Below, one piece after another: positions 15,636-37,761 of a stretch of DNA of 38,769 nucleotides (position 1 is the first letter of the stretch; the number at the start of each line of letters is the position of its first letter). The translations under genes were made by a program, and so were the position numbers. The DNA is from a virus (taxonomy: Duplodnaviria; Heunggongvirae; Uroviricota; Caudoviricetes): IMG/VR virus record IMGVR_UViG_2778261204_000005, positions 1 through 38,769 of that record; one strand, given 5' to 3'. Below the pieces are notes generated by a model. The model did not search any database, was not told where the DNA came from, and saw only the letters and a list, made by a program, of their open reading frames with translations.

Positions 15636-15820
15636 ACGCCACAATTCAAACGATACCAGATCTTCTTATCCAGACACGAGGCAATCAGACCGAAGTGGCA
15701 AGGATGCTTTCCTGCGCAAGAGGAACAGTGCTCAAGTACAACCGAGACAGCAAAGGCGAGCGTCACGTAATAGTTAACGGCGTCCTGATGGTCAAACAGG
15801 GCAAGAGGGGAAGACGATGA
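15632..15820 (+). CDS. ninH: NinH-like protein
   Basis: IPDLLIQTRGNQTEVARMLSCARGTVLKY resembles lambda NinH. Confidence 0.7.
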   Translation: MNATIQTIPDLLIQTRGNQTEVARMLSCARGTVLKYNRDSKGERHVIVNGVLMVKQGKRGRR

Positions 15821-16335
15821 GCATAAGAGAACTAAACCTCACCAAAGAACAGCACGATTGGCTGAATGGCTGGCTTGAACTGTGGGGCGCATGGGTTTAT
15901 TCAGGCCGCCTGGAAAAGCGCATGAGCAGCGTAATAGCGAAGTTCATGGAGAGCGTAGAGCCGGGAAGAGTTATGACAAGGCCAATGTGTAATGATGATG
16001 ATGGAATGTTGATTTCTCAGGTCGTCGATTCCGTCATGTACATTGACAAGAGAGCCTTTGGCATCCTCCTCAGCTACTACGCTCATGGTTCATCTAAGCG
16101 AGCAATTGCATCCTACTATCACGCGACTGCAAAGCCACGCAAGATGTGTGGGCGTGGTGGCGAGGGATGGAGAAAACCTTCACTGGCAACCTGTAGAAAC
16201 GAAATTGACGACATCCTGAAAGCGTCGTTATTTGTTTTGTACCAACCAATGCAAAATGCTTTCAAAATGCGTAAACGTGTTGAGAAAGTTAAGCATGTTG
16301 CTGTTAAAAGCCTTGACATGCAATTATCCATTTAG
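15817..16335 (+). CDS. Q: late-gene antiterminator Q (P22 gp23 / QuuD-type)
   Basis: LELWGAW and PMCNDDDGMLI motifs as recalled for QuuD-type Q; followed by PR'. Confidence 0.7.
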   Translation: MSIRELNLTKEQHDWLNGWLELWGAWVYSGRLEKRMSSVIAKFMESVEPGRVMTRPMCNDDDGMLISQVVDSVMYIDKRAFGILLSYYAHGSSKRAIASYYHATAKPRKMCGRGGEGWRKPSLATCRNEIDDILKASLFVLYQPMQNAFKMRKRVEKVKHVAVKSLDMQLSI

Positions 16336-16932: not shown

Positions 16933-17256
16933 ATGAAGATGCCAGAAAAACATGACCTGTTAGCCGCCATTCTCGCGGCAAAGGAACAAGGCATCGGGGC
17001 AATCCTTGCGTTTGCAATGGCGTACCTTCGCGGCAGATATAATGGCGGTGCGTTTACAAAAACAGTAATCGACGCAACGATGTGCGCCATTATCGCCTGG
17101 TTCATTCGTGACCTTCTCGACTTCGCCGGACTAAGTAGCAATCTCGCTTATATAACGAGCGTGTTCATCGGCTACATCGGTACTGACACGATTGGTTCGC
17201 TTATCAAACGCTTCGCTGCTAAAAAAGCCGGAGTAGAAGATGGTGGAAATCAATAA
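16933..17256 (+). CDS. S: holin S (lambda-type, dual-start MKM)
   Basis: Recognised as essentially identical to lambda S. Confidence 0.95.
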
Positions 17257-17716
17257 TCAACGTAAGGCGTTCCTCGATATGCTGGCGTGGTCAGAGGGAA
17301 CTGATAACGGACGTCAGAAAACCAGAAATCATGGTTATGACGTCATTGTAGGCGGAGAGCTATTCACTGATTACTCCGATCACCCTCGCAAACTTGTCAC
17401 GCTAAACCAAAAACTCAAATCAACAGCAGCCGGACGTTACCAGCTTCTTTCCCGTTGGTGGGATGCCTACCGTAAGCAGCTTGGCCTGAAAGATTTCTCT
17501 CCGAAAAGCCAGGACGCTGTGGCATTGCAGCAGATTAAGGAACGTGGCGCTTTACCGATGATTGATCGCGGTGATATTCGTCAGGCTATCGACCGTTGCA
17601 GCAATATCTGGGCTTCACTTCCGGGGGCTGGTTATGGCCAGTTCGAGCATAAGGCTGACAGCCTGATTGCAAAATTCAAAGAAGCTGGCGGAACAGTCAG
17701 AGAGATTGAGGTATGA
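17240..17716 (+). CDS. R: endolysin R (lytic transglycosylase)
   Basis: Recognised as essentially identical to lambda R, 158 aa. Confidence 0.95.
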
Positions 17717-18150
17717 GCAGAGTAACCGCGATTATCTCCGCTCTGGTTATCTGCATCATCGTCTGTCTGTCATGGGCTGTTAATCATTACCGTGATAACG
17801 CCATGACCTACAAAGAGCAGCGCGATAAAGCCACATCCATCATCGCTGACATGCAGAAGCGTCAACGTGATGTAGCAGAACTCGACGCCAGATACACAAA
17901 GGAGCTTGCTGATGCTAACGCGACTATCGAAAGTCTCCGTGCTGATGTTTCTGCTGGGCGTAAGCGCCTGCAAGTCGCCGCCACCTGTGCAAAGTCAACG
18001 ACCGGAGCCAGCAGCATGGGCGATGGAGAAAGCCCAAGACTTACAGCAGATGCTGAACTCAATTATTACCGTCTCCGAAGTGGAATCGACAGGATAACCG
18101 CACAGGTTAACTACTTGCAGGAGTACATCAGGACGCAGTGCCTTCGATGA
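17713..18150 (+). CDS. Rz: i-spanin Rz
   Basis: N-terminal TM, coiled-coil periplasmic domain; follows R. Confidence 0.85.
17906..18097 (+). CDS. Rz1: o-spanin Rz1 lipoprotein, embedded in +1 frame of Rz
   Basis: Signal peptide with lipobox (LGVSAC), proline-rich mature part, wholly inside Rz. Confidence 0.75.
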
Positions 18151-18324
18151 TAGCGATAATTTTACTCATCATCCTTCACATCTGGCTCTGTAGACAGGAT
18201 GGTGATCACTTCTGGAGTGAATCCAGATTAAACATCTCATTGCTGATGCTTGAAGTTGAGCATCTGGCGCGCGGTAAGGGGCTGCGTTGAGATAAGAGCC
18301 AGTCATTACAAATACCAGGATTTA

Positions 18325-18350
18325 GCCTCGCATTCGCGGGGCTTTTTATT
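18325..18350 (+). terminator. rho-independent terminator after the lysis cassette
   Basis: GCCTCGC-ATTC-GCGGGGC followed by TTTTTATT. Confidence 0.6.
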
Positions 18351-18371
18351 CCCAACTCTATAGGTAATTTT

Positions 18372-18893
18372 ATGACCCAGCATATTGGCGTAAAACTGAT
18401 TAACGCCTTTCCGATGACGAGACAGGCATATAACGATTTTCGTGGCTGGCAGCTTCCTGCCGGAGAAAACGGCGAGGATGAAGGCTATCTGGTTGAATAT
18501 CTTGATGGCGGAAAACCTAACACCGATCGCTTTGATGGCTACGTTAGCTGGAGTCCAAAAGAAGTATTCGAAAAGGCTTATCGTCCGGTATCAGGGCTAA
18601 GTTTCGGCCTTGCCATTGAAGCGCTCAAGTTGGGGAATAAAGTTTCCCGTGCTGGCTGGAATGGTAAGGGTATGTGGCTGGCATACGTTAAACCGTACAC
18701 TGAGGCTGTTCATACTGGCAGTACGCCTTGCTTTTGCAGTCGCGTCTTTGAGTTGCCTGAAGGTACGCATGGAGAATCGAAACGATCTCCGAAACAACTT
18801 CCGTATATCGCCATGAAAACAGCGGACGATAAATTAGTGCCGTGGCTGGCTAGTCAGACTGATGTTCTAGCAGAAGACTGGCAAATCATTTAA
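18372..18893 (+). CDS. two-domain accessory protein; C-terminal half resembles DUF2829 (family recalled to include Tad2 anti-Thoeris sponges)
   Basis: C-terminal GWNGKGMW ... PW.ASQTD.LAEDW signature; family assignment from memory, unverified. Confidence 0.45.
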   Translation: MTQHIGVKLINAFPMTRQAYNDFRGWQLPAGENGEDEGYLVEYLDGGKPNTDRFDGYVSWSPKEVFEKAYRPVSGLSFGLAIEALKLGNKVSRAGWNGKGMWLAYVKPYTEAVHTGSTPCFCSRVFELPEGTHGESKRSPKQLPYIAMKTADDKLVPWLASQTDVLAEDWQII

Positions 18894-19124
18894 CCATGTA
18901 GCCATTACAAAGCCCATCTACTGGTGGGCTTGATAATGAAACCGGAATTTATTCTGGGCAACCAGTTACGGCAGTACCACGAAACAACCCAAGCCAGTAA
19001 GTGGGGAAATAACACTGGCAGCCACTGAAAGATGAACCTCCTGCCTTATGGCAAAAAAGATTCTTTGTGGTGGCGGACTGATGGAAAGACATCCTAATTT
19101 CAGCCAAACATTGAAGGAGTTGTT

Positions 19125-19196
19125 ATGTCAGCAGAAGGTTTCAATAACCCATCAAAATTCCGGGATGAGTGGGATAGCAGCGTAAAGAGTAAGTGA
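19125..19196 (+). CDS. 23-aa small ORF (MSAEGFNNPSKFRDEWDSSVKSK), paralog of 19544..19615
   Basis: AAGGAG RBS; peptide conserved with the second copy; found by hand translation. Confidence 0.45.
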   Translation: MSAEGFNNPSKFRDEWDSSVKSK

Positions 19197-19298
19197 TGCC
19201 ATCACAAAAGCCATTCCCTACAGAGTGGCTTTGATGGCTTATACCCTACACGGGATAGCTTAACTGATATCCCTTTTAACGGATAAACGGAGCCAACA

Positions 19299-19541
19299 AT
19301 GGCAGAGATTATTCCCATGACTGAAGAACAGAAATTCCAGTTAGAGATTTACAAACTGGTCATGAACCAGAACGCAGCCGCAGAGGAAGCATTTCAGTTC
19401 ATTGGCACTGACGAGCTGAAGCTTGAGCTATTTAAAATTCACTTCCAGTCAGGCGGCGCTAACTCAGATATCACGACCCGCACTATCGAAGCGGTACGTA
19501 AATCGAAGGAAGCGTTAGACCTGTTCACTACGGGAGCGTAA
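19299..19541 (+). CDS. hypothetical 80-aa acidic protein
   Basis: ORF with GGAG RBS, flanked by the two small paralogous ORFs. Confidence 0.5.
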   Translation: MAEIIPMTEEQKFQLEIYKLVMNQNAAAEEAFQFIGTDELKLELFKIHFQSGGANSDITTRTIEAVRKSKEALDLFTTGA

Positions 19542-19620: not shown

Positions 19621-20046
19621 ATGGCGACTGAGAAAAAGAAAGGTGGTCGCCCCTCTGATTATATGCCGGAGGTGGCTAATGACATTTGCGCATTGCTTTC
19701 CTCCGGTGAGAGTCTGCGCAAAGTTTGCGAACGCCCAGGAATGCCGAGCAAAACATCAGTTTTTCGCTGGCTGGCTGAACATCAGGAGTTTCGTGACCAG
19801 TACGCGAAGGCAACAGAGACTCGGGCCGACTCTATTTTCGAAGAGATATTCGAAATTGCTGACGACGTAATCCCTGATGCCGCCGAGGTGGCAAAGGCAA
19901 GACTTCGCGTTGATACCCGCAAATGGGCGCTGGCCAGAATGAATCCCCGTAAGTATGGCGACAAGGTAACTAATGAGCTTGTCGGCAAAGACGGCGGCGC
20001 AATCCAGATTGAAACATCACCGATGAGCACTCTGTTCGGAAAATGA
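19621..20046 (+). CDS. terminase small subunit (Sf6 gp1-type)
   Basis: Recognised as Sf6 gp1-like TerS; precedes large terminase with 4-nt overlap. Confidence 0.85.
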   Translation: MATEKKKGGRPSDYMPEVANDICALLSSGESLRKVCERPGMPSKTSVFRWLAEHQEFRDQYAKATETRADSIFEEIFEIADDVIPDAAEVAKARLRVDTRKWALARMNPRKYGDKVTNELVGKDGGAIQIETSPMSTLFGK

Positions 20047-21455
20047 CCTCGATTAATCCTATCTTTGAACCGTTCATTGAGGCGCATCGCTACAAAGTCG
20101 CCAAAGGCGGTCGAGGTAGCGGTAAGTCATGGGCAATCGCGAGACTGCTTGTTGAAGCGGCGCGTCGGCAGCCAGTGCGTATTCTCTGCGCTCGTGAACT
20201 GCAAAACAGTATCAGCGATTCGGTAATCCGGTTGCTTGAAGACACTATCGAGCGTGAAGGGTATTCGGCTGAGTTTGAAATTCAGCGTTCCATGATTCGT
20301 CATCTCGGAACGAATGCTGAGTTCATGTTCTACGGCATCAAAAACAACCCGACGAAGATTAAATCGCTAGAAGGCATTGATATCTGCTGGGTGGAAGAAG
20401 CGGAAGCGGTAACGAAGGAATCATGGGATATCCTGATCCCAACCATCCGTAAGCCGTTCTCTGAAATATGGGTGAGCTTTAACCCGAAGAACATACTCGA
20501 CGATACCTATCAGCGGTTCGTTGTAAATCCTCCCGATGATATTTGCCTGCTGACGGTGAACTACACCGACAACCCGCATTTTCCTGAAGTTCTCCGTCTG
20601 GAGATGGAAGAGTGTAAACGCAGAAATCCGACACTGTATCGTCACATCTGGCTTGGTGAGCCAGTAAGCGCAAGTGATATGGCAATCATCAAACGTGAAT
20701 GGCTTGAAGCCGCAACCGATGCGCACAAGAAACTCGGATGGAAAGCGAAAGGCGCGGTTGTTTCTGCACATGACCCGTCAGATACAGGGCCGGATGCTAA
20801 AGGTTACGCATCGCGTCACGGTTCGGTGGTTAAGCGCATTGCCGAAGGTCTGCTGATGGACATCAACGAGGGTGCTGACTGGGCTACTTCGCTGGCGATT
20901 GAAGACGGCGCTGACCATTACCTGTGGGATGGTGATGGTGTTGGTGCGGGGCTACGCAGACAGACAACGGAAGCGTTCTCCGGCAAGAAAATCACCGCCA
21001 CGATGTTCAAGGGCAGCGAATCGCCATTCGATGAAGATGCACCATATCAGGCCGGAGCATGGGCCGATGAAGTCGTACAGGGCGACAACGTTCGTACTAT
21101 TGGCGATGTATTCCGCAATAAGCGAGCGCAATTCTATTACGCGCTGGCTGACAGGCTGTATCTGACATATCGGGCGGTTGTCCACGGTGAGTATGCAGAC
21201 CCCGACGACATGCTGAGTTTCGACAAAGAAGCAATAGGCGAGAAGATGCTGGAGAAGCTGTTTGCAGAACTTACGCAGATTCAGCGCAAATTCAATAACA
21301 ACGGGAAGCTGGAGCTAATGACTAAGGTCGAAATGAAGCAGAAGCTCGGTATTCCATCTCCTAACCTGGCTGATGCGCTGATGATGTGTATGCATTGCCC
21401 GGCATTGGTTCGCGAAGAAACAGAAATATACGTTCCCTCATCCTCCGGTTGGTAA
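20043..21455 (+). CDS. terminase large subunit (ATPase/nuclease)
   Basis: 470 aa, Walker A GGRGSGKS. Confidence 0.9.
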   Translation: MTSINPIFEPFIEAHRYKVAKGGRGSGKSWAIARLLVEAARRQPVRILCARELQNSISDSVIRLLEDTIEREGYSAEFEIQRSMIRHLGTNAEFMFYGIKNNPTKIKSLEGIDICWVEEAEAVTKESWDILIPTIRKPFSEIWVSFNPKNILDDTYQRFVVNPPDDICLLTVNYTDNPHFPEVLRLEMEECKRRNPTLYRHIWLGEPVSASDMAIIKREWLEAATDAHKKLGWKAKGAVVSAHDPSDTGPDAKGYASRHGSVVKRIAEGLLMDINEGADWATSLAIEDGADHYLWDGDGVGAGLRRQTTEAFSGKKITATMFKGSESPFDEDAPYQAGAWADEVVQGDNVRTIGDVFRNKRAQFYYALADRLYLTYRAVVHGEYADPDDMLSFDKEAIGEKMLEKLFAELTQIQRKFNNNGKLELMTKVEMKQKLGIPSPNLADALMMCMHCPALVREETEIYVPSSSGW

Positions 21456-37686: not shown

Positions 37687-37761
37687 TGGTGTCCCCTGCA
37701 GGAATCGAACCTGCAATTAGCCCTTAGGAGGGGCTCGTTATATCCATTTAACTAAGAGGAC
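37687..37761 (-). tRNA. argW: tRNA-Arg (anticodon CCU), argW-type; its 3' end is attR
   Basis: 75-nt cloverleaf read on minus strand: acceptor stem GTCCTCT/AGGGGAC, anticodon loop CT-CCT-AA, T-arm GGTTCGATTCC, 3' ACCA. Confidence 0.9.

Follow-up and report, generated by a model that had tools for sequence, protein, structure and literature searches.

A Tad2-like protein with a sponge-associated N-terminal domain encoded in a P22-like phage or prophage genome

The 38,769-nucleotide stretch of DNA analysed here (IMG/VR virus record IMGVR_UViG_2778261204_000005, positions 1 to 38,769; hereafter the window) is the genome of a P22-like (Lederbergvirus) phage or prophage. Downstream of its lysis genes lies an open reading frame (ORF) of 173 amino acids (aa), which starts with ATG and extends from 18372 to 18893 (stop codon included). 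The list of ORFs and their translations confirmed that this ORF is real and placed as given in the initial annotation. Like all domains, motifs and cassette features described below, it is located on the plus strand. The encoded protein is composed of an N-terminal domain, here termed N-domain (aa 1-73, 18372..18590), and a C-terminal Tad2-like domain (DUF2829, PF11195; aa 77-173, 18600..18890), the latter being interrupted by a hypervariable insertion of 37 aa (aa 107-143, 18690..18800). The ORF is 99.6% identical in nucleotide sequence to a gene in a prophage of Escherichia coli G3/10, for which RefSeq gives the label 'DUF2829 domain-containing protein', and it is 97% identical to Kapi1_043 of Escherichia phage Kapi1. 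The surrounding region (window 18100-19300) also resembles Kapi1, with 97% identity across 87% of its length.

That the C-terminal half might be DUF2829/Tad2-like had been suggested from its motifs, and the respective Pfam search left little doubt about it, as PF11195 scored 89 bits (cut-off 25; E=3e-25), aa 77-173 being aligned to profile positions 2-73 of 73. A sequence search against the PDB yielded MoTad2 (9eib, 1e-16), Tad2 (8v3e, 1.4e-16), HgmTad2 (8kbi, 7.6e-15), SptTad2 (8wjd, 5.1e-14) and SPO1 Tad2 (8sme, 2.7e-13), with 9kzr (HgmTad2/AcrIIA7) and 8wje (SPO1 Tad2) as further matching chains. Both motifs on which the suggestion had been based could be located: GWNGKGMW at aa 95-102, and the terminal PW.ASQTD.LAEDW-type pattern, which reads PWLASQTDVLAEDW, at aa 157-170. 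In HgmTad2, the residues W21, N22, G23, W87, L88, S90, T92 and D93 hold glycocyclic ADP-ribose (gcADPR), with W21/N22/G23 contacting its diphosphate and adenine (bioRxiv 10.1101/2023.11.15.567273). The Tad2-like domain was aligned with five experimentally studied Tad2 proteins (SPO1, Mo, Hgm, Tad2_70 and Tad2_71) and with gp49 of phage N4. In this alignment the GWNG motif (G95 W96 N97 G98, 18654..18665) corresponds to HgmTad2 W21/N22/G23, and within the WLASQTDVLAEDW motif (W158-W170, 18843..18881; residue roles from bioRxiv 10.1101/2023.11.15.567273) W158, L159, S161, T163 and D164 align with W87, L88, S90, T92 and D93. All eight pocket residues are thus present, and W96, N97, G98, W158, S161 and D164 are invariant among the aligned proteins, so that, as judged from the alignment, the gcADPR pocket of HgmTad2 appears to be conserved in this protein. 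The cyclic-dinucleotide pocket of HgmTad2 is not kept in a phmmer alignment, in which R31, K46, S47 and F70 stand opposite K, F, E and Q, respectively, and N85 has no counterpart because of a gap; within the insertion this alignment is uncertain. An AlphaFold2 (AF2) model of the full protein exhibited the expected helix-sheet-helix layout outside the insertion (helix 78-86, strands 91-93, 102-106, 145-149 and 155-157, helix 162-166, strand 170-172), with a predicted local distance difference test (pLDDT) score of 74-89 there.

With regard to previously studied Tad2 sponges (SPO1 gp34.65, MoTad2, HgmTad2/AcrIIA7 and SptTad2), the C-terminal 97 aa align from end to end and the GWNG and W-L-x-S-x-T-D pocket residues are retained. 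However, the characterised members are either single-domain proteins of 80-104 aa or possess an unrelated two-helix head (HgmTad2, Tad2_73), whereas the protein studied here has its own beta-rich N-domain of 73 aa and an insertion with a sequence of its own. This insertion, which was delimited by an identity profile and the AF2 model (pLDDT 47-55 in this segment), is by far the most variable part of the protein: among 48 homologues the mean pairwise identity was 0.12 for the insertion, but 0.67 for the N-domain and 0.74 and 0.69 for the conserved Tad2 parts on both sides. In phage Huey and at three further loci (L027-L029), differences from the window are confined to about 18676-18829, that is, to the insertion. 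In prophages of the type represented by locus L007 the exchange extends further, as their nucleotide identity to the window amounts to 96.7% between the lysis genes and position 18623, followed by complete divergence as far as 18870, by which the Tad2 core is replaced. A comparable picture emerged from protein pairs with N-domains of at least 90% identity, the Tad2 halves being less than 60% identical in 152 of 223 such pairs, and from complete genomes of E. coli. Among 5,426 of the latter, 45 contained a match and four the full allele (at least 80% of the query), while among the partial matches listed four covered only the 5' half (nucleotides 1-252 or 1-296) and another four spanned 74% of the query in two pieces. 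Such a pattern would be expected if the ligand-binding half were under diversifying exchange and the N-domain were held constant.

The N-terminal half, which had been described as a separate domain that could not be placed, indeed forms a confidently predicted fold of its own (AF2 pLDDT 94.5) with a beta-beta-alpha-beta-beta-alpha order of elements. Searches with the N-domain against Pfam, NCBIfam and PADLOC yielded no matches, a profile search against the PDB gave none below E=1, and a Foldseek search of the model against the PDB gave none either. Its sequence follows the motif K..A.PM.R..Y..RGW.lP..E...DEGYLVEY.DGGkpN.....GYvSWSPK.vFe.aY, in which K8, R17, R24 and K63 are almost invariant. 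Many other polar and aromatic residues of surface type are likewise almost invariant, even though the respective phages infect bacteria of three phyla. This fits better with a small molecule or a universally conserved component as target than with a host protein specific to one lineage.

Several possible identities of the N-domain were considered and rejected. The Pfam name 'N4 Gp49/Sf6 gene 66' (PF13876) had prompted the idea that the domain is Acb4, but no match to PF13876 was obtained even at E<=10. The family is carried by Sf6 gp66 and N4 gp48, not by N4 gp49, and Sf6 gp66 is unrelated to the N-domain. Neither is the domain Lockin or Acb5, as Lockin sequences are unrelated to it and absent from INPHARED phages, Lockin being rather another fusion partner. 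For DUF1653 (PDB 3be3) and for Tudor/SH3-like domains (CarD, the Mfd RNA polymerase interaction domain, the UvrD C-terminal domain) scores were marginal and homology was unsupported, with hhalign giving a probability of 0.3% against a crAssphage DUF1653 protein. A function as virion-packaging tag, which could have explained the place of the gene in the late operon, is unlikely, since the domain is acidic and conserved over unrelated virion types; in addition, gp68 of Pectobacterium phage vB_PatP_CB1, which bears a homologous N-domain (see below), is not among the structural proteins of this phage confirmed by mass spectrometry. The assumption that the domain is always N-terminal was refuted by proteins with the orders Tad2-N, Acb4-N, Sequestin-N and Acb4-N-Sequestin. 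With the order this free, it also becomes less plausible that the N-domain serves as a leader, as a lid or as a folding nucleus.

When 1.84 billion cluster representatives were searched with a profile, the N-domain turned out to belong to a large family, with 2,743 representatives at E<=1e-3, of which 1,317 reached E<=1e-10. When the best 150 of the 2,743 representatives were analysed with Pfam, Tad2 was found in 46, Sequestin (PF21825) in 44, Acb4 (PF13876) in 14 and the Acb2/Tad1 hairpin in two, whereby these counts may overlap because some proteins bear two sponge domains. WDGH, AP2 and HNH occurred as single cases in this set, and there was no recurrent partner other than sponges. An independent sample of 156 unique N-domain proteins from two IMG/VR scans and phage records, which is biased towards relatives of the query, contained 119 proteins with Tad2, 23 with Sequestin, three with Acb4, one with RyR and one with Acb2, alongside four with an unknown partner domain and three consisting of the N-domain alone; two triple arrays were also present. 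A search of a 5.8-billion collection with the single N-domain sequence returned only proteins of up to 132 aa and was hence not used for the census. Table S4 of Tal et al. includes two Lockin homologues with a short form of the N-domain, and their Sequestin table includes at least 148 'SWSP' strings, a number which counts strings and not validated domains. Altogether, six sponge families (Tad2, Sequestin, Acb4, Acb2, Lockin and RyR-Tad) were found fused to the N-domain. Stand-alone N-domain genes of 73-78 aa are common as well and lie distant from any sponge gene, so that the domain shows the generic trait of sponges of existing both as a short phage protein and as a fusion to known sponges. 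The phages concerned infect Proteobacteria, Bacteroidota (crAssphage gp41 with Acb4, a Parabacteroides phage with Sequestin) and Firmicutes (a Clostridium perfringens phage with Acb4). The expectation that such a fusion would be unusual therefore did not hold: the full-length protein matches phrog_872 with 3.5e-72, N4 gp49 has the same layout, and Tad2 is the partner in 46 of the best 150 representatives. Moreover, a whole-protein search of 5.8 billion proteins yielded more than 7,900 matches, and nearly all of the best 120 covered 100% of the query.

A few members of the family exhibited additional segments. The 408-aa ORF of locus L116 (IMGVR_UViG_3300022303_000062) is composed of the N-domain, Tad2, two tandem units of about 55 aa and Acb4. 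The repeated unit (AEIPEGF..W....P......VEV........IIAYRVVE) is unannotated and could be a further unrecognised module of sponge arrays. In three other proteins, namely gp06 of Rhodoferax phage P26218 (L090, 181 aa), a 174-aa ORF (L085) and P0284 (230 aa), the N-domain is joined to a partner without Pfam match. By their fusion to the N-domain these partners become candidate sponge families. The protein P0315 (354 aa) is an N-domain-Tad2 protein in which about 180 aa interrupt Tad2 inside the variable insertion. One AP2 and one HNH_3 match were obtained by Pfam among the best 150 representatives, although the census did not identify the member that bears them. We suspect that they belong to P0315, which might then contain a homing-endonuclease-like insertion in its ligand loop.

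One of the closest described counterparts is gp49 of phage N4 (EF056009, 34003-34485), which likewise consists of two domains, has an N-domain 54% identical to the one studied here and matches PF11195 with 8e-24. It is located in a known anti-signalling hotspot and adjoins the Acb4 gene (gp48), which lies directly upstream. In contrast to the window, N4 is a member of the Schitoviridae, its gene is placed near the virion RNA polymerase gene and not in the slot between lysis and terminase genes, and its insertion is short. The nomenclature is somewhat treacherous here: PF13876 is named 'N4 Gp49/phage Sf6 gene 66', yet in EF056009 (L005, 1109-1962) it is gp48 that matches this family (8.8e-35). 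As N4 gp49 in this record is composed of the N-domain and Tad2 and lacks PF13876, the name of the family could mislead annotation. Another counterpart is RyR Tad, gp68 of Pectobacterium phage vB_PatP_CB1, whose N-domain is homologous (hhalign probability 97.5%, E=5.8e-12), but shorter, more divergent and devoid of the DGGKPN loop, and whose C-terminal sponge is all-helical and RyR Repeat12-like instead of Tad2. Within the N-domain family, this protein alone has been both crystallised and tested for function (bioRxiv 10.64898/2026.06.04.730250). In the crystal its N-domain forms a strand-swapped dimer and adds to dimerisation (Fedorova et al., bioRxiv 10.64898/2026.06.04.730250).

The modular layout also resembles the beads-on-a-string fusions of two sponges, such as Acb4-Tad2 of Pasteurella phage Pm86, Tad2-Sequestin and Acb4-Sequestin (bioRxiv 10.1101/2025.07.12.664507). 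The N-domain occurs with the same partners and in the same arrays, for example as N-Acb4-Sequestin in Achromobacter phage Axy13 and as N-Tad2-x-x-Acb4 in L116. However, while both modules are proven sponges in these fusions, the N-domain is only a candidate. Sequestin itself was found by Tal et al. via Pfam families fused to Tad2 or Acb4 (bioRxiv 10.1101/2025.07.12.664507), and the N-domain, for which Pfam has no model, was therefore missed by this approach. The N-domain motif is also absent from Table S2 of Tal et al., which lists 124 screened candidates. In the papers that were searched, neither the N-domain fusion pattern over sponge families nor an N-domain function was described.

A comparison with phage Sf6 allowed the borders of the inserted DNA to be determined. 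The 9-bp direct repeat CATTACAAA occurs exactly twice in the window, once at each junction (18304..18312 and 18903..18911), while Sf6 possesses an uninterrupted site with a single copy and matches the window to 18312 and again from 18903 onwards. The repeat at both junctions together with the empty site of Sf6 identifies the gene as part of a 599-bp cassette, which comprises a hairpin and the ORF and is inserted ahead of the native hairpin. The repeat has the appearance of a target-site duplication or of a junction where morons are exchanged via microhomology. An upstream terminator had been claimed before, and a consensus scan located a terminator-like hairpin with T-run at 18324..18350, at the 5' end of the cassette. 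The hairpin (18324-18343) has a stem of 8 bp with six GC pairs and is followed by TTTTTATT, the terminator assignment being a consensus match only. An own promoter of the cassette was considered, but dropped, as no sigma-70-like site was found on the plus strand from 18313 to 18372. Besides Sf6, the close relatives HK620 and CUS-3 also lack the gene. An unrelated Klebsiella phage shares just the ORF, from its start to its stop codon, at 88.5% nucleotide identity.

About 200 bp further downstream (about window 19098-19201) there is a second slot, which is empty in the window but occupied by an Acb4 gene in Sf6 (gp66, PF13876 3.6e-35) and in phage Huey. Huey contains both this Acb4 gene and a homologue of the cassette ORF, whereas Sf6 is devoid of the cassette. 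Given these two filling patterns, the interval between Rz and DUF2560 of P22-like phages seems to be a hotspot for sponge genes that has two sites of insertion. The location, which the initial annotation had called typical of cargo and anti-defence genes, could thus be traced to a discrete cassette with an empty counterpart in Sf6 and an Acb4 gene in the adjacent slot of related phages.

The placement of the gene between Rz and the terminase was borne out by Pfam, by which the neighbouring genes were identified as Rz (17713-18150), Rz1 (17906-18097), DUF2560 (19299-19541), the small terminase (19621-20046) and the large terminase (20043-21455), with the Q antiterminator (15817-16335) and the holin (16933-17256) further upstream. 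The ORF between holin and Rz (17240-17716) had no Pfam match at E<=1e-3, but is labelled as endolysin in Kapi1, Huey and Sf6. An ORF of 50 aa with GTG start (18138-18290) overlaps the end of Rz and stops just short of the cassette junction. It had no match in a Pfam search and is, by position only, equivalent to Kapi1_042, the annotation of which includes a signal peptide, and to Sf6 gene 65. The sole tRNA found in the window is a tRNA-Arg (anticodon CCT) on the minus strand at 37687-37761.

Taken together, the gene is probably an anti-defence moron of a P22-like prophage, encoding a signal sponge of the Tad2 family joined to a sponge-associated module. Characterised Tad2 proteins are tetramers with two pockets for ligands of the gcADPR class at inter-protomer interfaces, and the sequestration of the signal prevents the activation of the effector (bioRxiv 10.1101/2023.11.15.567273). 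By analogy, the Tad2-like domain would most likely assemble into a homotetramer, in which two protomers would contribute their GWNG loop and WLASQTD helix to the pockets. These may sequester the ADP-ribose-derived Thoeris signals made by Toll/interleukin-1 receptor (TIR) proteins, that is, molecules of the 3' cyclic ADP-ribose (3'cADPR)/gcADPR class and possibly histidine-ADP-ribose (His-ADPR) or N7-cyclic ADP-ribose (N7-cADPR), so that the Thoeris effector would never be activated. The insertion, swapped between phages by recombination, may tune or add ligand specificity. Late transcription from a Q-dependent promoter presumably reads through the hairpin, and the N-domain would be a separate, self-contained module, for which a strand-swap dimer is known from the gp68 homologue.

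Several observations speak against this interpretation or limit it. Tad2 homologues differ in the system that they inhibit, which may be Thoeris I, II or IV, CBASS or Pycsar (bioRxiv 10.1101/2025.08.24.671296), so that the ligand cannot be read from the sequence even though the family assignment is firm. The residues that make up the cyclic-dinucleotide pocket in HgmTad2 are not retained, and an N-domain is absent from all 18 Tad2 homologues that Hadari et al. screened (bioRxiv 10.1101/2025.08.24.671296). The gene belongs to the late operon downstream of Q and lacks a sigma-70-like promoter of its own on the plus strand, and this position is late for an immune evasion factor. The N-domain is acidic (isoelectric point 4.9), and sponges typically are homo-oligomers whose inter-protomer pockets carry a positive charge (Tal et al., bioRxiv 10.1101/2025.07.12.664507). 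Finally, the isolated N-domain of gp68 (gp68_N, residues 1-86) had no apparent anti-Thoeris-I activity and gp68_C was enough for it (bioRxiv 10.64898/2026.06.04.730250).

The latter result, the acidic character of the N-domain and the strand-swapped dimer of gp68, to which the N-domain is linked by hhalign, would all be compatible with the N-domain being a mere scaffold for dimerisation or avidity or a folding aid, with the protein functionally being just a Tad2. We regard this as rather unlikely. Stand-alone N-domain genes are common and situated away from sponge genes, the partners differ in their oligomeric state (dimer, tetramer or hexamer) while the domain order is free, and the near-invariance of surface-type residues extends over phages of three phyla; besides, the test of gp68_N covered one defence system only. 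On account of these stand-alone genes, the free order, the dissimilar partners and the near-invariant residues, we lean towards an independent function of the N-domain. It is conceivable, and we put it forward tentatively, that this function is that of a pan-phylum anti-defence module, either a sponge with a new ligand or an inhibitor of a component that is conserved in nucleotide-signalling immunity; otherwise an independent N-domain might have some other binding role.

As for the Tad2-like domain, it might act mainly on non-Thoeris signals, such as cyclic dinucleotides of CBASS or cyclic CMP and cyclic UMP of Pycsar, by means of its insertion, which at 37 aa is long and moreover hypervariable. 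There are precedents for such activities, as HgmTad2 and SptTad2 bind the cyclic dinucleotides cGG or cGAMP by their insertion (bioRxiv 10.1101/2023.11.15.567273) and MoTad2 and Tad2_70 inhibit Pycsar by an A-C interface pocket (bioRxiv 10.1101/2025.08.24.671296). However, the gcADPR pocket is fully conserved, the cyclic-dinucleotide residues of HgmTad2 do not map in the phmmer alignment and the insertion was modelled with low confidence, which leaves a predominant role of this kind unlikely. The label 'anti-CRISPR protein' of the Huey homologue, which stems from a Pharokka-style annotation, points to another potential function, namely that of an AcrIIA7-type anti-CRISPR blocking Cas9 through binding of trans-activating CRISPR RNA (tracrRNA). 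AcrIIA7 chains were indeed matched at 7.6e-15 and 3.6e-14, and head-less AcrIIA7 binds tracrRNA in vitro. Yirmiya et al., however, argue that the DUF2829 family is anti-Thoeris and not anti-CRISPR. In addition, full-length AcrIIA7 with its own N-terminal head was inactive in a cleavage assay, which makes such a role unlikely for a protein with an N-terminal add-on. Nor are the bacteria infected by these phages (E. coli, Shigella and Klebsiella) known to contain type II-A Cas9 systems, and altogether an anti-CRISPR function appears highly improbable. Hardly any more credible is an ordinary housekeeping gene, i.e., a lysis or packaging accessory with a DUF2829-like fold, as could be suggested by the late-operon position behind the lysis cassette and ahead of the terminase. 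Such a gene would be at odds with the absence from Sf6, HK620 and CUS-3, with the direct repeat at the empty-site junction, with the movement as a single ORF to unrelated phages, with Acb4 in the same slot of other phages and with the lack of CB1 gp68 among the confirmed structural proteins.

For the interpretation as a Tad2-family sponge joined to a sponge-associated module, the Tad2 half is in itself ordinary and already annotated; by it, the large and well-studied family of sponges for Thoeris and CBASS signals gains another E. coli prophage. The two-domain architecture is widespread, and the useful lead is the N-domain. Among the best 150 representatives every recurrent partner of this domain is a proven sponge, and it was the same guilt-by-fusion logic that led to Sequestin. 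If the N-domain has a target of its own, this would point to a new pair of immune signal and sponge or to a shared weak point of signalling defences, and many genes now annotated as 'DUF2829' only would turn into dual-function evasion factors. If it is indeed an anti-defence module, its fusions to Tad2, Sequestin, Acb4, Acb2, Lockin and RyR-Tad would represent evasion proteins that phages have built against several targets. The domains of unknown type joined to the C-terminal side of the N-domain are, in turn, cheap candidates for new sponge families, and the variable Tad2 insertion beside a constant N-domain represents a natural experiment in the switching of ligand specificity.

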